Assembly (NCBI GenBank): GCA_036867785.1
Contig: CP145423.1
Coordinates: 620,001 to 684,000 of the forward strand
DNA: 64,000 nt
DNA from: Plasmodiophora brassicae
Taxonomy: Eukaryota
Reading direction: 5' to 3'
Under the pieces are notes generated by a model that saw nothing but the letters and a program-made list of their open reading frames with translations, was not told the origin of the DNA and searched no databases. Numbering within the stretch: the first letter of the stretch is position 1; each line of letters begins with the position of its first letter. Positions 1,817 through 10,789 of the stretch are shown here, piece after piece. Made by a program: the position numbers and the translations under genes.

Positions 1817-3640
1817 ATGACGACGACGGCGACCTCGATCGTGCAGGCCGCCCAGCAGCTCTTGAACGTTTATGGCACGTCTATCGTGTTCGCCCTCGTG
1901 TGGGGTTCCCTCCTGATGGCGTTCCTGCACGCCATCGCGTACATTGTCACCTACATTGTCACCCTGGGCAACGTGGTCGTTTACGGGGAGAAGGACCAGG
2001 AGCACCCGGTGCTGACGCGCCTGGTTGCGGCCACGTTCCTGGTCCTGTACACGTCGTACAACATCGGCGTGTACGGCCTACTGATCGCGTCGGTCAACTT
2101 CCGTCACGCGTTCAGGGCGTCTCCCTGGGACAGGCTGGACGCAACCTTCGCCATGCTGGTGATGCTGGAACCGCTGGCGTTGGTTGTGGCCACCTGGTTC
2201 CGCGTCAAGTGTGCGATTGACGCCGGGCGACGGGCTCCGACGGACGCCCAGGTCCTGAAGGCGATCGCCACGCGGGCGACGAAGAAGCGGGTGCGCAACC
2301 AGAACCCGTACGTCACGGTCGTCATGCCGATCTACAACGAGCCGATCGAGACGCTCATGACGGCGATCAACTCGGTGGCGCAGGCCGAGTACCCGACGCA
2401 TCGTCTGCACCTCGTGCTGGCGTTCGACTCGGACGAGGTGTCGACGCTGTACCGGACGGTCATCTACTGCCTGGTGGCGGGCAAGACCTGTATCGACAGC
2501 AGCATGCTGACGACGGGCAACGTGCTGGACGAGATCGGGGTCAGCGGCGACGGCCTGCCTGCCGTCGGCGTCGACATCATGTTCCGGGGCCTGAAGGTCA
2601 CGCCCTGCCGGTTCGTGCATGGCGGCAAGCGGCACGCGCAGATGTGCGCCTTCCGCTACCTGTCCGACCTGTACGCCGCCCTGGCGACGAAGCCGCTGCT
2701 CCTGTTCATCGATTCCGACATTGAGCTGGACGCGCTGGCCATCGCGCACTTCACCTACGAGATGATGGGGCAGACGGGCGTCTACCGCGACGCGCTGACC
2801 GGGCTGATCACGTGCAAGACGGCCGGCACGTACAGCTTCCTGAAGGTGCTGCAGGACGCCGAGTACGTCGAGTCGCAGATGCTCCAGCGCAACGCTGAGG
2901 ACTACCTCGGGTCGGTGTCCTGCCTGCCCGGCGCCCTCACCATGGTCCGGTTCGAGTCGCTGGCCAGGGTGGCGCCCACCTACTTCGGCAACATGGACGC
3001 CGTCGACAGCTTCGACTTCAACCGGACGCACCTGGGCGAGGACCGCTACCTGACGCACCTGCTGATGGAGCGGTGCGCCGACCGGTACCGGATCGGGTTC
3101 TGCCCGTCGGCCCGCTGCAAGACGGAGGGATGCGCCACGTTCCGCTCGCTGATGAAGCAGCGCCGACGCTGGTACCTGGGCACGCTGCTCAACGAGGTCT
3201 ACCAGCTGACGTCGCCGACGCTCTGGCGGCAATTCCCCGGCCTGAACACGCTCCTGGCCCTGTCCGCCCTGCGCAACGGCCCCTTGTTCGTGTATGCCCT
3301 GTGCCTGCAGCTGATGCAGGGCCAGGGCACCTGGTACACGGTCGGGTACGCCGTTGCCGTCTTCGGCGTCATCTGGCTGTACCTGATCGTGGTGGCGGTC
3401 AGGATCGGGCGGATCAAGATCACCTGGGTCTATCCCGCCGTGGTCTTGGTCCTCCCCATCCTGGCCGCCGGATTCCAGCTGTATGGAATCCTGACGTTCA
3501 GGGTGCGGACCTGGGGCGGCCCCCGCACCGCCGTCGTCGACGTCGAGGCGCCCCCGGCCGTCGACGCTGAGGCGCCCCCGGCCGTCGACGCTGCCGGTCA
3601 CGACCAGGACCTCCTCCAGGAAGTCGTTGTCGTGCCGTAG
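1817..3640 (+). CDS. Chitin synthase-like GT2 glycosyltransferase (607 aa, intronless)
   Basis: Motifs VVMPIYNE, GGKRHAQ, LLFIDSD, CLPGALTM, LGEDRYLT and QRRRW; N- and C-terminal hydrophobic helices; RTWGGPR end motif. Confidence 0.9.
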   Translation: MTTTATSIVQAAQQLLNVYGTSIVFALVWGSLLMAFLHAIAYIVTYIVTLGNVVVYGEKDQEHPVLTRLVAATFLVLYTSYNIGVYGLLIASVNFRHAFRASPWDRLDATFAMLVMLEPLALVVATWFRVKCAIDAGRRAPTDAQVLKAIATRATKKRVRNQNPYVTVVMPIYNEPIETLMTAINSVAQAEYPTHRLHLVLAFDSDEVSTLYRTVIYCLVAGKTCIDSSMLTTGNVLDEIGVSGDGLPAVGVDIMFRGLKVTPCRFVHGGKRHAQMCAFRYLSDLYAALATKPLLLFIDSDIELDALAIAHFTYEMMGQTGVYRDALTGLITCKTAGTYSFLKVLQDAEYVESQMLQRNAEDYLGSVSCLPGALTMVRFESLARVAPTYFGNMDAVDSFDFNRTHLGEDRYLTHLLMERCADRYRIGFCPSARCKTEGCATFRSLMKQRRRWYLGTLLNEVYQLTSPTLWRQFPGLNTLLALSALRNGPLFVYALCLQLMQGQGTWYTVGYAVAVFGVIWLYLIVVAVRIGRIKITWVYPAVVLVLPILAAGFQLYGILTFRVRTWGGPRTAVVDVEAPPAVDAEAPPAVDAAGHDQDLLQEVVVVP

Positions 3641-4013
3641 CTGCCGATATCACCATGATACACATGATCAGTTTAGCCGCATCTCGAATTGTCACAGGCC
3701 CATGGCGGCCGGGTAGAACCCATGCAGGTGATCACGGTCATCAGGCGGCCGATCCCCTGACCCTCGGTATGGCGATGACGAGTAGCGGGAATGGCCGTGA
3801 ACATTACGATGGCGTACGTGTACCCAGGTACACTGGCGCCCCTGCAGAAGCGGCCTGTAAGGAGAGGAACGTAGGCGAAGGGCGGGCCGTGGCGCCGGGC
3901 TTAGGCTCGCCTTCCGTCATGAGTACAGCTGGCGGTGGCATGCCCTCCCGGCCGGTGACTGGGTCCACGACCGCGGGTGGCCGTTGCCCGTCGTTCCGCC
4001 GCGTCCTGCTGCC

Positions 4014-6986
4014 ATGGGCACCACCTGGGCGTTCTGGGCGACGACTCGACAGCCGCGATGCATAACGTCGCGTTGTGCGACGATTTGTATTGGACACCTG
4101 CCCCGAGAACGGCTCTCGTGGCCTATATTAGTTGGGCGGTCCGCGATGGGCTGTTGGGCGTGTCGGCCGCCATCGCTGCGCTGTGGCGTCCAGCGCGCTC
4201 GCCGTCGACTGCTGGGTACTGTGGTGCGATCGTCGACGTCGCCCGACGCCTCCGATGCGGGGTCGGGCACGTCGATGATCGACCTGTTCCTGCAGCAGCC
4301 GTCGGTCGGCCTGGGGCTGACGGCGGTGCGCCACGAGCCGGATCCGGACCGCGCCTTCACGATGTTTCGCATGATGCTGATGTCGCGCGACATCGACATG
4401 CGCGTGTTCCAGACGATGATGACGTATTGCAAGCAGCGTGCGCCGGCGAAGGCCCCGGCCGTGTTCGACCGCGCCCTGATGCACGGCGTCGACCTGCCGC
4501 TGAGCGACGGGTTCTTCTGCACCTACCTGGGCGCCTGCCAGCGCGCCACGCCGATCCCGCTCGACAACGTCCTGCAGCGGTACCGCAGGGTGGGCCCTCG
4601 CACCCACAACGTCATCTTCGGGATGGCCAACATCTGCAGGGTGGCGAGGAAGCCCGAGGCGGCGCTGTTCCTCGTCTGGGACGCCGTCAGCAACAAACTC
4701 GTCTTCACCGAGAAGCTCCTGTCCTTGTTCGCGGCCTGCTGTGCGGAATCGCACTCGAAAGACGGCGCCGACACCGCCAAGTATCTGCTGTCGATGCTCT
4801 GCTCGAAGCGCATCGCCACGTTCCCGAACGTGCAGCTGTTCGCCAACCTCGTCAAGGCCGTTCTGGACCAGGACCGGATCGACAGCGCTCTGAAGGCGCT
4901 GGCGCTGATGGATATCCTGGAGGTGCCTCCGTCCGAGCACATCTTCACCATGGTCCTGTCCTCGCTCGTCAGGGCCGCCCGCCTTCAGCAATCCCTCGCC
5001 GTCTACCGCACGATGGCGCAGCGCGGCATTCCAGTGTTCCACGCGCTGCTCCCGTCGCTCATCGCCCTGTGTGGACGCCACTCCGATCTGGCCGCCGTCC
5101 AGGACCTGCATCGGTATGCGGACGCGCGCTCCCTGCTCAGCAACGACTACGTCGCCTGCGCGTTGATTTCCGCATACGATAAGTGCCAGCGCCCGGACGC
5201 GGCCGAGCAAGTCTTCCTGGCCCGGTTCGCCGTATCGACGCCGGACGAAGCCCTGTTCACGGCCATCGTGTCGTCGTACTGCCACCATGGCATGCTGGAC
5301 AGTGCCGCCGGCATGTTCGCCAAGCTGAAGGCGTCAGGGCAGGTGCCGACGCAGGCGGCCTACACGGTCCTGCTGTGGGGCCTGTGCCGAGGAAAGTCGA
5401 GCGATCAGGCGCTGGCGTTGTTCCGCGACATGCTGGACCAGAAGGTTCCTGTCAGCCCCGCCGTGTTCAGCCTTCTGGTCGGCGCCTGCGCCAACGCCGC
5501 CGACGTCGACAACCTCTATCAGTATGCGCGGGCGACGCCGTTACTCGACAACGACCGTGTGGTCGGTGCGTTCATCGCCGCCTACGCCCGGCTGCACAAA
5601 GCGGACGTCGCCGGCGACGTTTTCCATTCGGTTGCCTCCCCCGGTACAGACGCGTTCAGTGCGATTATCGACGTCTCTGTCGCCCAGCGACGGTTGCCGG
5701 ACGTCTTCGACTTGGTGGGTCAGGCTGCCGACGCCGGCGTGCCCCTGCAGAAGCCGACAATGGCCGCCATTGTCGACCTGCTTGCTGAGCTGCCTCATTG
5801 CGACCATCCTGTCAAGGTTGTTACCTCCGTTGAAGGGCACAAGTCTGCCGTCAGGCCCGGCCACCTCGCTCGCCTGTCGACCGGATGCGGACGTCGCGGG
5901 GAGCGCTCGTCCCTGATCGTCCTGCATCAGCTGGCGCGGGACAGGGCGCTTCTCGGCAACGACGACGTGACCCGAGCCCTGGTGTCGGCGTTCAGTGCGG
6001 CCGGCGATCTCGACTCCGCCAAGGCGGTCTTCGGCGAGCGTTCCGCGATCTCGACGCCCGACGTGGCGACGTGGGACGCGATGCTGGCCGCGCTCAGCCT
6101 CCACGGGACCCTACCGGAAACGGCAACCGCGTTCGACGACATGACGTCGGCCGGCATGCGACCGTCGACCAGGACCCTGACGTCACTGTTACGCGCCTGC
6201 GCCCGGGCCAGGGACCCGGCCCGGGCGGATGCCTTGCTGAGGGAGTTCGCCGACGTCTGGGACGTGCCGTTGTCGGGCGAACACGTCCGGTGCATCGTCG
6301 ACCTGCATGGCAGGATCGGCAACGTGGGCGACGCCGAGCGCATCGCCTCTGCCCAGCTGCCACGTGATGCCGGCGCCTGGCTGACCGTCCTGCGGGCCTG
6401 CCGTAAGCACAAGGACGTGGCGCGTGCCGAGCGCGCCCTGTCCGCGCTGACCGCGCTACCAGGGGTCACATCCAGGCAACGGCAGTCCGCTTTCAGCCTC
6501 GTGGTCGACGTGTACAGGGCAGCCGGCCGGACCGACGATGCTGAGCGTCTGCGAGGCGAATGCCGTTCCTGTAATTTGCCACCAGGGGACCATCAGCCGA
6601 CGACGACGTTGCATCTGCAGGATCGGTGCGTCCAGGTCTCCGATGCGTTGTACGAATCCGATCCCGGCCTTCGTGAGTGCCATCGCGCGATGGTGGCCCG
6701 TCTGGTCGAGAACGGGCACCCGCCGAACCTGCCCGCTGCGCCAGATCACGACGCGTGTCAGCGCGTACGACCGCACAGTGCAGAGCTGGCGTTGGCCTGC
6801 GGGTTGATATCGAACGACGATAGCCGCTGCACCATCCGGCTGACCCAGGACGCGATTCTGTGCACCGACTGCCACCAGGTCGCGAAGACCGTGTCGCAGG
6901 TCTACGTGACCGATGCCTACATCCGGGACGACGTCGTCCATCACCATTTCAGCCAAGGGCACTGCTCTTGCGATGATTACTGGTAA
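4014..6986 (+). CDS. Pentatricopeptide-repeat protein with C-terminal DYW-like domain (start Met 4014 or 4146)
   Basis: Repeated PPR-like 35-aa motifs (e.g. FTAIVSSYCHHGMLDSAAGMFAKLKASGQVPT, WDAMLAALSLHGTLPETATAFDDMTSAGMRPS); C-terminus HSAELALACGLI...CTDCH...HHFSQGHCSCDDYW. Arg-rich, acid-poor N-terminus from Met 4146 resembles a mitochondrial presequence. Confidence 0.9.
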   Translation: MGTTWAFWATTRQPRCITSRCATICIGHLPRERLSWPILVGRSAMGCWACRPPSLRCGVQRARRRLLGTVVRSSTSPDASDAGSGTSMIDLFLQQPSVGLGLTAVRHEPDPDRAFTMFRMMLMSRDIDMRVFQTMMTYCKQRAPAKAPAVFDRALMHGVDLPLSDGFFCTYLGACQRATPIPLDNVLQRYRRVGPRTHNVIFGMANICRVARKPEAALFLVWDAVSNKLVFTEKLLSLFAACCAESHSKDGADTAKYLLSMLCSKRIATFPNVQLFANLVKAVLDQDRIDSALKALALMDILEVPPSEHIFTMVLSSLVRAARLQQSLAVYRTMAQRGIPVFHALLPSLIALCGRHSDLAAVQDLHRYADARSLLSNDYVACALISAYDKCQRPDAAEQVFLARFAVSTPDEALFTAIVSSYCHHGMLDSAAGMFAKLKASGQVPTQAAYTVLLWGLCRGKSSDQALALFRDMLDQKVPVSPAVFSLLVGACANAADVDNLYQYARATPLLDNDRVVGAFIAAYARLHKADVAGDVFHSVASPGTDAFSAIIDVSVAQRRLPDVFDLVGQAADAGVPLQKPTMAAIVDLLAELPHCDHPVKVVTSVEGHKSAVRPGHLARLSTGCGRRGERSSLIVLHQLARDRALLGNDDVTRALVSAFSAAGDLDSAKAVFGERSAISTPDVATWDAMLAALSLHGTLPETATAFDDMTSAGMRPSTRTLTSLLRACARARDPARADALLREFADVWDVPLSGEHVRCIVDLHGRIGNVGDAERIASAQLPRDAGAWLTVLRACRKHKDVARAERALSALTALPGVTSRQRQSAFSLVVDVYRAAGRTDDAERLRGECRSCNLPPGDHQPTTTLHLQDRCVQVSDALYESDPGLRECHRAMVARLVENGHPPNLPAAPDHDACQRVRPHSAELALACGLISNDDSRCTIRLTQDAILCTDCHQVAKTVSQVYVTDAYIRDDVVHHHFSQGHCSCDDYW

Positions 6987-7152
6987 TACTGGGTGGGGGC
7001 GCGGTTTCCCCCTGTCATGCACGATATGGATCCATGGCGTCGGCCCAATGTCGACGCCAGGTAGCGGGTCGCGTGTCACGAAACAATCGACGTGCACACA
7101 TCTAACAGCAAATAAATAGTATACATCTATATACATTCTACAGGGGCGAGCG

Positions 7153-8306
7153 TCACGTGGACTTTGGCCGCAGGATCTGATCGCACACGTCTTTGGAGTA
7201 CGTGTGCGATTCGATGTCTCTGTAGAGCGCGGGCTCCAGGCGGCGGATCAGGTCGAGCGTGAACGCAATCGTCAGGCGAGCATTGAGCGCCGGCCACTTG
7301 CGGTAGTTGAGGATCTCATTCGGGCTGCACAGCAATGAACGGCCACGCGTCCGTTAGCCAGAATCCCACCCAGGTACATCATTATTAGGCGCGTCGTACT
7401 TGCCAACGCTGAACAGGCCGTCGCGGACCAGCACGACCTGGGCGACGATCGCAACGATATTGTTGTGGACGCCGAACCCGAGAAGAAAGTCCCAGAGTTT
7501 CAGCACCTCGGAGAACGGCTGCAGGACACACGATATGCTCGACACGACTGCACAGGGACACACAGGAAACACATTGAGCAACGCCGACGGTTAGGCCGTT
7601 TGGCAGGCGGCCGTACGGGCGAACGCGTAGACGGTGGCTTCCAGGCGCCTCGATCGCAGGTGATGGAACAGGTCCGGGTCGGCCGCCTGCAGGCACCGGT
7701 CGACGAGGACGCAGCCGGCCCTGGCGCCCGCCATGTTCGCCAGCCAGTACGTCGGGCAGTACACCTTGATGAACCGGGAGAAGGCCGCCTGCGCCTCCAG
7801 CTCGCTCATGCAGTACAGGAACGGGGCCGCCACCGCGTTCATCCCCTGCAGGTACGAGAAGACGCCGTCGGCGGCGTTCTCGTGGACGAACGAGTTCAGC
7901 AGCCGGATCAGGGAGTTCTCGGTGACGCGCGCCTGGAACGATTTCTCCTACAACAACGGCCCGGGTTGGTCAGCGGACCCTGCCGGCCTGGAGCAACAGC
8001 AGCATCGTTCCGTTTTACATTTGGGAACGTCCGGAACGAATCGCTCCGTATCTTCTGGTACTGCTTGCACGGCCCCAGGCGTATCAGGCTGCCGTAGCGT
8101 TCGGCGCTGACGCTCGGGACGGCGAGCAGCGTCATCCAGACGAGGCCGCGGACCGGGACGCCCCGGTCGTCGGCGGCGGCGCCGTGCAGGAGCAGGTGCC
8201 GGCGCAGCTGGAACAGCATCTCGACGGCATTGTCGTCCTCGTCGCCGGCGGCGCACGCGTCCAGGAACCGGCGCAGGCAGGCGGCCAGGGCCTGATCGGA
8301 CGCCAT
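7153..8306 (-). CDS. BUB2: Bub2/Cdc16-like TBC-domain (Rab-GAP) protein, 4 exons
   Basis: RGLVWMTLL, KIRSDSFRTF, LIRLLNSF, YLQGMNAVAAPFLY and EVLKLWDFLLGFGVHNNI motifs; three GT-AG introns (~7950-8020, ~7550-7615, ~7325-7400) join the ORF pieces in frame. Confidence 0.85.
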
Positions 8307-8809: not shown

Positions 8810-10789
8810 ATGTGGCAGCAGGCAGCGCCCACTTCTGCTGCTGCTGCTGAGGCGGCCCGATGGGCGCTCGTTCTCTGCCTTTTATGTACGACGGCCGGTG
8901 TCGCCCAGGCGCAGCAGCAGCAGCCTGCTCAGCGCCAGGCGTTCAACTGCCGCAGCCAGAACGGCCTGAAGGTGTCCGAGTCGGTCCAGGCGCAAGCGGG
9001 GACGCTGTCGGACGGCCCGGGCGGCATCCGGTCCAACACGTGGTGCGAATGGGCGGTCAGCGTGCCGCCTGCCGCGCCGGGCGGTGCGCCGGCCGGCCCG
9101 CGTCGCGTCCGCCTGACGTTCCGCACGGTCCAGCTGATGCCCGGCGAGGACTTCATCTGGGTGTTCGACGACGCCGTCAGCAAGACGGTGCCGGTGCAGC
9201 GCCTGACGGGGACGAACACGCCCGGCGTGATCTACTCGGCCAGCGAGGCCGGCCTGCGCGTCGAGTACCGGTCGAGCGAGTTCGGCAACGGCGTGGCCGT
9301 CGCCGAGGAGCAGGGCTTCGACGCCGACTTTGACATTGTCGGCGTGAAGGGCGTGTGCAACCCGTCGCCGTGCGCCGAGCAGAGCGTCTGCATCGAGGAC
9401 GACGCCGGCGGGCACCGGTGCACGCGCTGCCCGATCGGGTACACGGGCGACGGGTCGCAGCGGGGCGGCTGCCGCAAGGTGACGCCCTGCCCGACGCCGA
9501 TCGTGCGCCGCGACCTGCGCCTGATCAGCGCCGGCGAACGCGACCTGTACGTCGGCGCCCTGCAGGCGATGCGGCGCAGCGGCCTGTACGACGAGATCAT
9601 GTGGGTGCACGCCGACAAGTTCAACTTCAACTACGCGCACCTGACCGACGGGTTCCTGCCCTGGCACCGCGAGTACCTGCTGATGATGGAGGACGCCCTG
9701 CGGTCCGTCTCGCCCGAGACGAACTGCCTGGCGATCCCCTTCTGGGACTGGACGGTCGACGCCGCCAACCCGATGGCCTCCATCGTGTGGCGCGACGACT
9801 ACTTTGGGGGCAACGGCGTCGACGTCGGCAACGGGAAGAAGTGCGTTCGCAGCGGGCCGTTCGCCTGGTCGGTCCTCGGCAACGACTGCCTGCAGCGCGA
9901 CCTGAACGGCGCCGGGTTCTTCGCGACGCGCGAGGAGATCCTCAACACGATCGCCAGCAACGACAACTACCGCGACTTCAGCCGCGCCCTGGAGCTGTTC
10001 CACGACACGGTGCACCGGTTCATCGGCGGCACCATGGTGCTGGACAACTCGGCCGACGAGCCCCTCTTCTTCCTGCACCACTCCTTCATCGACATGCTCT
10101 GGTCCGTCTGGCAGGACTGCCACGACTACGACCTGGTGCCGGCGGCCAGCGTCCGCCCCGGCTCCAACGTCTTCATGGGCGGCTACGAGACGGGCGCCCT
10201 GGGCACCGTCGTCAACACCGACTACAACAGCGTCATGCCGTACCGCCTGTCGCATTACAACCCGCAGGTGACGCCGGCCGGCGTCCACGACATCCGCAAG
10301 CTCGGCTACTCGTACGACAACATGCACATCCTGAGCCGCCCGATGACCATCGAGTGGTTCGACCCGCGCTGGACGACCTGCACGATCGAGAACCTGGAGG
10401 CGTTCAAGGCCGCCCCGGACAAGTTCGCGTCGGCGGCAACCAACAGCAAGAGCTTCCAGGTGCTGCGCCAGGACGACGCCGACGCCGCCGTTGCCGTCGT
10501 CGTCCCCGGGCGCAAGGGGTCGCCGGCGACGACGATGCCGCCACGGGCGCTGTACAACGGGCCGACCATGTTCCCCGACCTGATCTGCGCCGGCTCGTAC
10601 ATCAACTTTGCCGACATGTGCGCCTGCATGCACAGCATGTGGAGCGGGGCCGACCTGCGCCACGTCGCCCAGACGCTGCCGTCCTGCCAGCGCGACGACG
10701 TCCTGTCGTGCGTGCCGGGGCGGCCCGCCAACCGCACCCACATGGTCCGGGTGCGCTCGGGCGCCGTCCAGGTCGGCGACGGCCTCTGA
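8810..10789 (+). CDS. Secreted tyrosinase (type-3 copper) with N-terminal CUB and EGF-like domains
   Basis: Signal-like ALVLCLLCTTAGVAQA; CUB pattern (CEWAVSVP, RVRLTF, DFIWVFD, GFDADF); EGF pattern (CNPSPCAEQSVC...CPIGYTGDG); CuA H...YAH...FLPWHREYL and CuB FHDTVHRFIGGTM...PLFFLHHSFIDMLW. Confidence 0.9.
   Translation: MWQQAAPTSAAAAEAARWALVLCLLCTTAGVAQAQQQQPAQRQAFNCRSQNGLKVSESVQAQAGTLSDGPGGIRSNTWCEWAVSVPPAAPGGAPAGPRRVRLTFRTVQLMPGEDFIWVFDDAVSKTVPVQRLTGTNTPGVIYSASEAGLRVEYRSSEFGNGVAVAEEQGFDADFDIVGVKGVCNPSPCAEQSVCIEDDAGGHRCTRCPIGYTGDGSQRGGCRKVTPCPTPIVRRDLRLISAGERDLYVGALQAMRRSGLYDEIMWVHADKFNFNYAHLTDGFLPWHREYLLMMEDALRSVSPETNCLAIPFWDWTVDAANPMASIVWRDDYFGGNGVDVGNGKKCVRSGPFAWSVLGNDCLQRDLNGAGFFATREEILNTIASNDNYRDFSRALELFHDTVHRFIGGTMVLDNSADEPLFFLHHSFIDMLWSVWQDCHDYDLVPAASVRPGSNVFMGGYETGALGTVVNTDYNSVMPYRLSHYNPQVTPAGVHDIRKLGYSYDNMHILSRPMTIEWFDPRWTTCTIENLEAFKAAPDKFASAATNSKSFQVLRQDDADAAVAVVVPGRKGSPATTMPPRALYNGPTMFPDLICAGSYINFADMCACMHSMWSGADLRHVAQTLPSCQRDDVLSCVPGRPANRTHMVRVRSGAVQVGDGL

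Follow-up and report, generated by a model that had tools for sequence, protein, structure and literature searches.

A predicted pseudo-deaminase in the PPR-DYW family of Plasmodiophora brassicae

What is a DYW domain for once its catalytic glutamate has been replaced? The question is raised by a gene of the clubroot parasite Plasmodiophora brassicae, a rhizarian, in a 64,000-nucleotide stretch of contig CP145423.1 (assembly GCA_036867785.1, positions 620,001 to 684,000 of the forward strand). This whole stretch is called the window here, and positions are counted from its first letter. The gene, the only DYW gene in the 64-kb window, encodes a pentatricopeptide repeat (PPR) protein that ends in a domain like that of the DYW editing factors of land plants, and its active-site motif reads His-Ser-Ala-Glu (HSAE) instead of HSE. 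A preliminary description made from the letters alone had taken it for a protist PPR-DYW protein, dead or altered in catalysis, perhaps mitochondrial, and intronless in a way that hinted at retroposition or horizontal transfer. The protist PPR-DYW protein with an expected loss of activity, its zinc sites and the missing intron have stood up to the present analysis; rescue by the shifted glutamate, an origin by retroposition or transfer and the idea of a single odd gene have not. To judge from sequence comparison, the gene product is a natural pseudo-deaminase variant in a lineage-specific PPR-DYW family, and it represents one case of a family-wide active-site loss in which about half of the sister genes appear to be similarly disabled.

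The HSAE motif and the catalytic centre

The motif is encoded by the codons CAC AGT GCA GAG at 6774-6785 on the plus strand, in frame with an open reading frame (ORF) that spans 4014-6986 (plus strand, 2973 bases) and yields 990 aa from an upstream ATG. A public model of 946 aa, P0152, starts at the ATG at 4146, which gives a single-exon coding sequence of 946 codons plus stop (4146..6986, plus strand). We number residues by this shorter model, so the motif is H877-S878-A879-E880, with the A879 codon GCA at 6780-6782. When aligned by HMMER to solved DYW chains, the region around the motif contains no gap: HSAELALACG faces HSEKLAIAFG in 9kfx, HSERIAIAYG in 7o4e (OTP86) and HSERLAIAFG in 7w86 (DYW1), with E-values of 1.6e-16, 1.3e-13 and 2.2e-13, respectively. 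Because the alignment to these three domains is ungapped, the histidine of HxE is kept, an alanine occupies the catalytic glutamate column and a glutamate follows one column later. In terms of OTP86, H892 corresponds to H877, E894 to A879, R895 to E880, K915 to Q901, C920 to C906 and C923 to C909. Codons and alignment together confirm the unusual motif that had first drawn attention to the gene.

An error in sequencing or assembly could in principle mask a normal HSE, and the preliminary description had named this as the finding that would overturn it. Twenty sequencing runs contain the gene, and we compared the assembled contigs of four of them, from four studies, with the window. Over the gene, these contigs have no differing letters, no gaps and no internal joint save a 21-letter match that is discounted below, and 98-100% of the sampled words of the gene are present in 12 additional runs. 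A second allele, P0002, has 15 of 903 residues changed, retains an open frame and also reads HSAELA; a word-based homologue search with residues 780-990 of the 990-aa frame found nothing beyond this allele. In addition, without the alanine codon the conserved LA.A.G helix that comes next would fall out of register. Since the codons are identical in the contigs of all four runs and the motif recurs in the divergent allele, HSAE is not a sequencing error, and we regard the chance of a hidden HSE as negligible.

The zinc ligands, which were said from the outset to be retained, are all present. H877, C906 and C909 provide the ligands of the first site (Zn1), and H910, H933, C940 and C942 those of the second (Zn2). 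The stretch C906-T-D-C909-H910 (6861..6875, plus strand) combines the CxxC pair of Zn1 with the histidine of Zn2, and the remaining Zn2 ligands lie together with the terminal D944-Y945-W946 in 6942..6983 (plus strand; DYW tripeptide at 6975-6983). Across 36 full-length family sequences, H910, H933, C940 and C942 are invariant and C906 and C909 nearly so. A further pocket position has changed along with the glutamate: Q901 (6846..6848, plus strand) aligns with K915 of OTP86, and the plant KNLR stretch around it reads QDAI.

What these changes would do to catalysis can be judged from engineered OTP86. The available excerpts of Takenaka et al. 2021 (PMC7611903) describe the E894A and E894Q proteins as soluble but inactive, and they report that K915 pairs with the catalytic E894. 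Loss of canonical deaminase activity is therefore to be expected here, as the preliminary description had supposed, and we consider it very likely that this PPR-DYW protein is unable to deaminate by itself. [quoted passage not shown] E880 would thus take a second-shell position with its charge reversed relative to R895. Because the side chain at this position faces away from the pocket and R895A is inactive in OTP86, the shifted glutamate is unlikely to restore catalysis.

Centre variants across the Plasmodiophora brassicae DYW family

To place the gene among its relatives, we searched 1.84 billion representative proteins with its last 194 residues, using HMMER, and obtained 1213 matches at E <= 0.001. 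A single match, the second allele, scored better than 1e-30; those that follow it are 34-42% identical. For a census of active-site columns, the last 140 residues of 151 proteins (the gene and its best 150 matches) were aligned, leaving out three rows without an alignable motif and the second allele. A FastTree phylogeny of the domain was built from 143 of the 151 proteins; the eight left out comprise seven whose domain is not C-terminal and one near-identical allele. All named P. brassicae rows fall in one clade of 35 rows with a support of 92, and P0041 and P0029 belong to the same clade. At least 29 named P. brassicae paralogues (28 matches and this gene) are found in protein databases, which is a lower bound, and P0015, P0026, P0033, P0043, P0061 and P0069 are further clade rows outside this set of 29.

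Inside and outside the clade, the catalytic columns behave differently. The histidine of HxE occurs in 112 of 112 rows outside the clade versus 33 of 35 within it, and its glutamate in 111 of 112 (the other row has Gln) versus 23 of 35. A Lys or Arg follows the glutamate in 111 of 112 outside rows and in 23 of 35 clade rows, where it is always Lys, and the lysine at the K915 column is found in 102 of 112 and 17 of 35. The first cysteine of CxxC is present in all 112 rows outside and in 32 of 35 inside; for the second cysteine the counts are 112 of 112 and 33 of 35. The alanine at the catalytic glutamate column of our gene is beyond chance, because Glu holds that place in 111 of the 112 DYW domains outside the clade and is found one column later in none of them.

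This census also bears on whether the protein could be a still-active deaminase, with E880 or another residue serving as proton shuttle and perhaps with altered chemistry or substrate. Such an enzyme is conceivable in that the new glutamate lies beside the missing one and no Zn1 ligand has been lost. Yet a glutamate directly after the catalytic column is found in this gene alone and in none of the 146 other aligned DYW domains, and the only other paralogue with alanine at the glutamate column, P0088, reads HSAM, so HSAE does not represent a conserved alternative motif. Neither K915 nor the KNLR stretch has been kept, and in OTP86 the side chain at the E880 position contacts C920 behind the zinc. 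Taken together with the inactivity of all three OTP86 mutants, these observations make a still-active enzyme very improbable, and they leave rescue by the shifted glutamate unsupported.

The preliminary description had proposed a survey of the paralogues for HxE, and the survey shows that this gene is not an isolated oddity. HxE and CxxC are both intact in 15 of the 29 named paralogues, whereas 14 lack the signature. The glutamate is missing in 12 (replaced by Val in three, by Ala, Pro, Asp or Thr in two each and by Cys in one), and the histidine together with one or both cysteines is missing in two, P0038 and P0055. Every zinc ligand is nevertheless kept in 12 of the 14 paralogues that have lost the signature. 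Even among the intact paralogues, the full stretch KNLRxCxDCH is kept in only four (P0007, P0008, P0010 and P0019). All 27 copies that were scored lie above the Pfam DYW cut-off, within a range of 49.4-110.4 bits; the 13 intact copies have a mean of 88.2 bits and the 14 non-intact copies a mean of 71.9, while this gene scores 65.7.

A few members depart from the family in other ways. P0038 is without the histidine and the first cysteine, P0055 is without the histidine and both cysteines, and P0061 keeps HSE but is without both cysteines; the C-termini of all three still read CSC..(D/E)(Y/H)W. P0234 (869 aa) and P0235 (658 aa), also from P. brassicae, match the family profile with E-values of 1.6e-253 and 4.3e-216, yet the precomputed Pfam list gives a DYW domain for neither; either they naturally lack the domain or their gene models may have been cut short. 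Finally, five environmental or metagenome proteins in or beside the clade (P0011, P0012, P0026, P0028 and P0033) are richer in lysine and isoleucine and all keep HSE; other plasmodiophorids or endomyxans are a possible source.

The depth of the family is evident from its divergence. The nearest paralogue is 38% identical to this gene over the full length and no other exceeds 38%. Family members have a conserved N-terminal helical module in common. The full-length phylogeny, built with IQ-TREE from 37 rows, has a star-like shape. Our two trees disagree on the sister of this gene, which is P0004 in the domain tree (support 86) and P0013 with P0025 in the full-length tree (support 94). When loss of the centre is mapped as a label, the best tree requires 12 changes, compared with a mean of 11.4 for shuffled labels (377 of 500 shuffles are as low), and the supported branches force one change. 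Because this star-like tree needs no fewer changes than shuffled labels do, it yields no count of independent centre losses. Sequence divergence and tree shape indicate that the family radiated long ago within the genome.

Protein architecture, transcription and genomic setting

The full-length protein was modelled with AlphaFold2 from 36 aligned sequences, at a mean predicted local distance difference test (pLDDT) score of 87.0. The model comprises helical repeats, two E1/E2-like helix pairs, a Pro-Gly pair followed by a beta-hairpin, and a deaminase fold. Approximately 23 helix pairs span residues 44-808, mostly at a spacing of 35 residues. Residues 1-43 (4146..4274, plus strand) form a presequence-like, arginine-rich N-terminus: residues 1-33 include seven Arg but neither Asp nor Glu, the model shows disorder over residues 1-41 (pLDDT <50), and the part conserved among paralogues starts directly afterwards in the family consensus. 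This segment is probably a mitochondrial targeting peptide, which keeps the suggested mitochondrial location plausible. Residues 44-244 (4275..4877, plus strand) make up the N-terminal helical module, with helices from residue 44 on (pLDDT mostly >90) and many columns conserved across the Plasmodiophora family, for example C95, P100, F124, C131 and C199 in the consensus of the 36 full-length sequences.

The PPR array proper covers residues 245-757 (4878..6416, plus strand), as delimited by Pfam and by the helix pairs of the model. Pfam matches are to PPR_2 (1.3e-26 to 2.1e-26), PPR (8.3e-24 to 1.5e-23) and PPR_long (9.1e-13), and the modelled pairs start at residues 245, 280, 315, 350, 384, 419, 451, 486, 517, 554, 587, 622, 656, 691 and 727, the last three PPR repeats measuring 35, 36 and 31 residues. 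Residues 758-808 (6417..6569, plus strand) form the E1/E2-like motifs, which were placed by HMMER and by Foldseek alignment to 9kfx. This stretch and the DYW domain align by HMMER to residues 420-612 of the synthetic PPR-DYW protein 9kfx; the Pfam E_motif profile matches it weakly (E 0.21).

The DYW-type domain occupies residues 809-946 (6570..6983, plus strand). The preliminary description would have failed if this C-terminus did not score as DYW_deaminase, and it does: PF14432 is matched with an E-value of 3.6e-18 and 65.6-65.7 bits against a cut-off of 24. This match covers residues 918-990 of the 990-aa ORF and profile positions 22-93 of 93, leaving positions 1-21 unmatched. The PG box is degenerate, with Pro-Gly at 6582-6587 and two beta-strands after it, and the rest of its consensus is not kept. 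When the C-terminal 194 residues were modelled alone from 66 aligned sequences (pLDDT 89.9), Foldseek returned 9kfx_A (E 1.4e-11, template-modelling (TM) score 0.76 over 198 columns), 7o4f_A (E 7e-8), 7o4e_B (TM 0.86) and 7w86 (TM 0.71), with TM normalised to the solved chain. The model thus predicts a deaminase fold into which a gating region is inserted, like that of the solved DYW structures. Pfam places both parts of the PPR-DYW designation, and the origin of the paralogues bears out the protist host.

In overall plan the protein resembles the PPR-DYW:PG editing factors of land plants, such as OTP86, the synthetic 9kfx and DYW1, with which it has in common a PPR tract, E1/E2-like helices, the DYW fold, both zinc sites and the terminal DYW. 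It differs from them in the catalytic centre, where Ala replaces Glu, Glu replaces the next Arg or Lys, Gln replaces K915 and QDAI replaces KNLR, and in its degenerate PG box, its repeats of mostly ~35 residues without a regular P-L-S pattern, and its host, a parasite without plastids. Of the features that define the class, then, the PPR tract, Zn1, Zn2 and the DYW tail are present, and the catalytic Glu, the basic residue after it and the Lys of KNLR are absent.

The four runs that were compared also inform the gene model. One contig per run is colinear with the window (4079-7116, 4119-7060, 4110-7324 and 4136-7011), so the gene has no intron, as had been claimed. The contigs begin at 4079, 4119, 4110 and 4136, and 3902-4035 is covered by none of them, although contig ends are a weak hint. 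The first ATG downstream of 4079 is the one at 4146, identical with the start of P0152, and the upstream extension of the open frame to 4014 probably lies outside the transcript. No listed run is recorded as RNA, but two features lead us to read these four as RNA. The first 65-120 bases of the 990-codon frame are missing in all four while they are covered in runs X1-X10, in which all sampled words are present, and the contigs of all four skip 75 bases of the neighbouring gene (7324 to 7400) between CT..AC ends, which are GT..AG on the minus strand. On this basis, the PPR-DYW gene appears to be transcribed.

One candidate intron was rejected. A joint from 4681 to 5277 recurs in all four runs, but its basis is a foreign contig that matches over 21 letters on each side and has 1204 letters in between, and we attribute it to a short word shared with another gene. 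The foreign contig (2.7-5.3 kb, with much deeper coverage) shares 4661-4681 and 5277-5297 with the gene and is probably another member of the PPR family.

These data allow us to ask whether the gene is simply a decaying relic, a former editing factor that lost its site and is drifting toward a pseudogene without function. Active-site decay in half of the family would suit such a history, as would the lower DYW scores of the non-intact copies and the residue differences between the two alleles. Against it, the 946-codon frame is open in both alleles, whereas a random frame at 65% GC would meet a stop about every 40 codons; the gene is found in the contigs of all four likely RNA runs; the whole protein is modelled with confidence; and the zinc ligands are invariant. 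We consider a functionless relic improbable.

The surroundings of the gene speak to its origin. Its GC content of 0.65 matches flanks of 0.64-0.68, and two neighbours are likewise uninterrupted ORFs: a chitin-synthase-like glycosyltransferase of 607 aa (1817-3640, plus strand; PF03142, 2.1e-21) and a tyrosinase-domain protein of 659 aa (8810-10789, plus strand; PF00264, 4.2e-34). PPR genes are typically intron-poor in plants, too. Because the neighbours are uninterrupted, the GC content matches the flanks and the family is an old radiation with no close paralogue, the absence of introns is no evidence for retroposition or for recent horizontal transfer, and we set aside that part of the preliminary description.

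Several further features of the window were noted. A convergent RabGAP-TBC gene (7140-8306, minus strand; Pfam PF00566, 3.1e-09 for the exon 7594-7842) contains the skipped segment 7325-7399, and run X13 additionally holds the unspliced form of this segment. The 3' end of the RabGAP-TBC gene abuts or overlaps that of the DYW gene, and a single contig spans both. On a larger scale, GC content falls from ~0.60-0.68 over the first 24 kb of the window to ~0.50-0.56 over most of 24000-64000, and AT skew is as low as -0.17 at 32-40 kb.

Possible roles for a DYW domain predicted to be inactive

If the protein cannot deaminate, why would its domain be kept? Retention of the fold, of the Zn1 and Zn2 ligands and of the DYW tail argues for continued selection on the DYW domain, and the 15 named paralogues that keep HxE and CxxC offer a pool of possible enzymes acting in trans. 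There are precedents in plants: the available part of one study (PMC9522420) describes PPR-E proteins that work with MEF8 or MEF8S, PPR-E+ proteins that work with DYW2, and CRR4, which works with DYW1. By analogy, the gene would encode a nuclear-encoded, probably mitochondrial, sequence-specific RNA-binding protein whose PPR tract binds one mitochondrial transcript. Its dead E1/E2-DYW module would be retained as a docking or positioning surface, and any deamination at the bound site would be performed by a paralogue with a complete HxE...CxxC centre. The location, the RNA binding and the partner are all inferred here, and the full mechanism, in which this protein forms the recognition half of a split system, is a tentative proposal to which we give somewhat less than an even chance.

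Several points weigh against this proposal and against the loss of activity on which it builds. Foldseek structural alignment puts identity at only ~25% to the plant protein from whose mutants inactivity is deduced. We found no orthologue in any other species, which leaves comparison with paralogues as the sole view of conservation over time. The plant proteins that use a deaminase in trans lack all or part of the DYW domain, while here the domain is whole. The DYW score of 65.7 bits lies in the lower part of the family range and would fit relaxed constraint. Residues of the substrate pocket have been replaced as well, and nothing in the sequence appears to tie this copy to editing over another RNA task. 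Finally, we found no report of C-to-U editing in P. brassicae mitochondria in the literature searched.

The last two points lend themselves to a different reading, in which the protein is a non-editing RNA maturation factor. Its PPR tract would support splicing, end protection or translation, and the dead DYW domain, a structural leftover, would be tolerated or put to new use. Splicing and RNA cleavage are tasks of some plant DYW or E-class PPR proteins, and the two family members without a listed DYW domain, P0234 and P0235, would fit such a role. The need for RNA-specific helpers would be large, given that the mitochondrial genome of P. brassicae is strikingly intron-rich, with 54 introns compared with five in Spongospora according to the excerpted text of PMC6823432. 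Set against this is the retention of all seven zinc ligands and of the DYW tail despite identity of at most 38% to every paralogue, which is hard to explain unless the domain has a role. Moreover, since 15 of the 29 paralogues keep a complete catalytic centre, editing probably exists in P. brassicae. A maturation factor is the main alternative, and we think it somewhat less likely than the proposed mechanism.

Comparison with described systems helps to define what is unusual about the trans-deaminase proposal. The column changed to alanine here is the one changed in OTP86 E894A, and the next column is that of R895A. Unlike those inactive laboratory proteins, as they appear in the excerpts of PMC7611903, this is a natural and apparently transcribed allele that carries extra changes and is known from sequence. 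Like the PPR-E factors and the PPR-E+ factors in the excerpted account (PMC9522420), it would recognise RNA without deaminase activity of its own, with intact DYW enzymes encoded by the same genome, but in those factors the DYW domain is absent or truncated, whereas here it is complete and would be disabled by point changes.

Another parallel may be ADAT3 (Tad3), the subunit without catalytic activity in the ADAT2-ADAT3 tRNA adenosine deaminase. It is a deaminase-fold protein that keeps its zinc ligands, has a residue other than Glu at HxE and binds substrate beside its active paralogue. Our gene likewise combines retained zinc ligands with a replaced catalytic Glu. ADAT3 belongs to another branch of the deaminase superfamily, and the heterodimer that is established for ADAT2-ADAT3 is only proposed for P. 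brassicae.

Plant-type DYW proteins outside plants are known from paradinids (Endomyxa, Rhizaria) and from other protists (PMC11946409, PMC13386178). In the excerpts at hand, a 2026 survey (PMC13386178) counts 31 DYW domains in Rhizaria and finds that most non-plant DYW domains keep HxE(x)nCxxC, as judged on one representative per lineage, and the paradinid proteins are described with conserved His, Glu and Cys residues (PMC11946409). The gene studied here departs from these accounts in having lost the glutamate. Compared with the other P. brassicae DYW paralogues, it has the same N-terminal module and the same tendency to lose the catalytic centre, but it alone places a Glu after the catalytic column. 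The DYW family of P. brassicae is already annotated in databases, and no account of how its catalytic centre has decayed turned up in the literature searched. The paper on the mitochondrial genome of P. brassicae has RNA editing only in the title of a reference, and neither PPR nor pentatricopeptide appears in it; one Plasmodiophora paper that refers to PPR genes mentions only the differential expression of two of them.

What does this imply for the parasite and for the DYW family? Plant-type DYW enzymes outside plants have usually been reported, in the excerpts available, with a conserved signature, yet this crop parasite has at least 29 such genes, 14 of them without it. For annotation, the gene product is best described as a DYW-domain homologue and should not be labelled an active cytidine deaminase. 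The intact paralogues predict mitochondrial C-to-U editing that would be worth seeking in P. brassicae, whose mitochondrial genome measures 114.7 kb, and the natural series of centre variants, with Ala, Val, Thr, Pro, Cys or Asp at the glutamate column, could be used to study roles of DYW domains besides deamination.

A broader, speculative and rather doubtful extension is that P. brassicae evolved a two-tier form of mitochondrial editing independently of land plants. In such an arrangement, about half of some 30 PPR-DYW proteins would be full-length pseudo-deaminases that choose the site, and a smaller intact set would catalyse in trans, much as in ADAT2/ADAT3. Alternatively, the dead copies may have been reused as helpers for the 54 mitochondrial introns. 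If either is true, the family would show a deaminase fold kept for a non-catalytic job.

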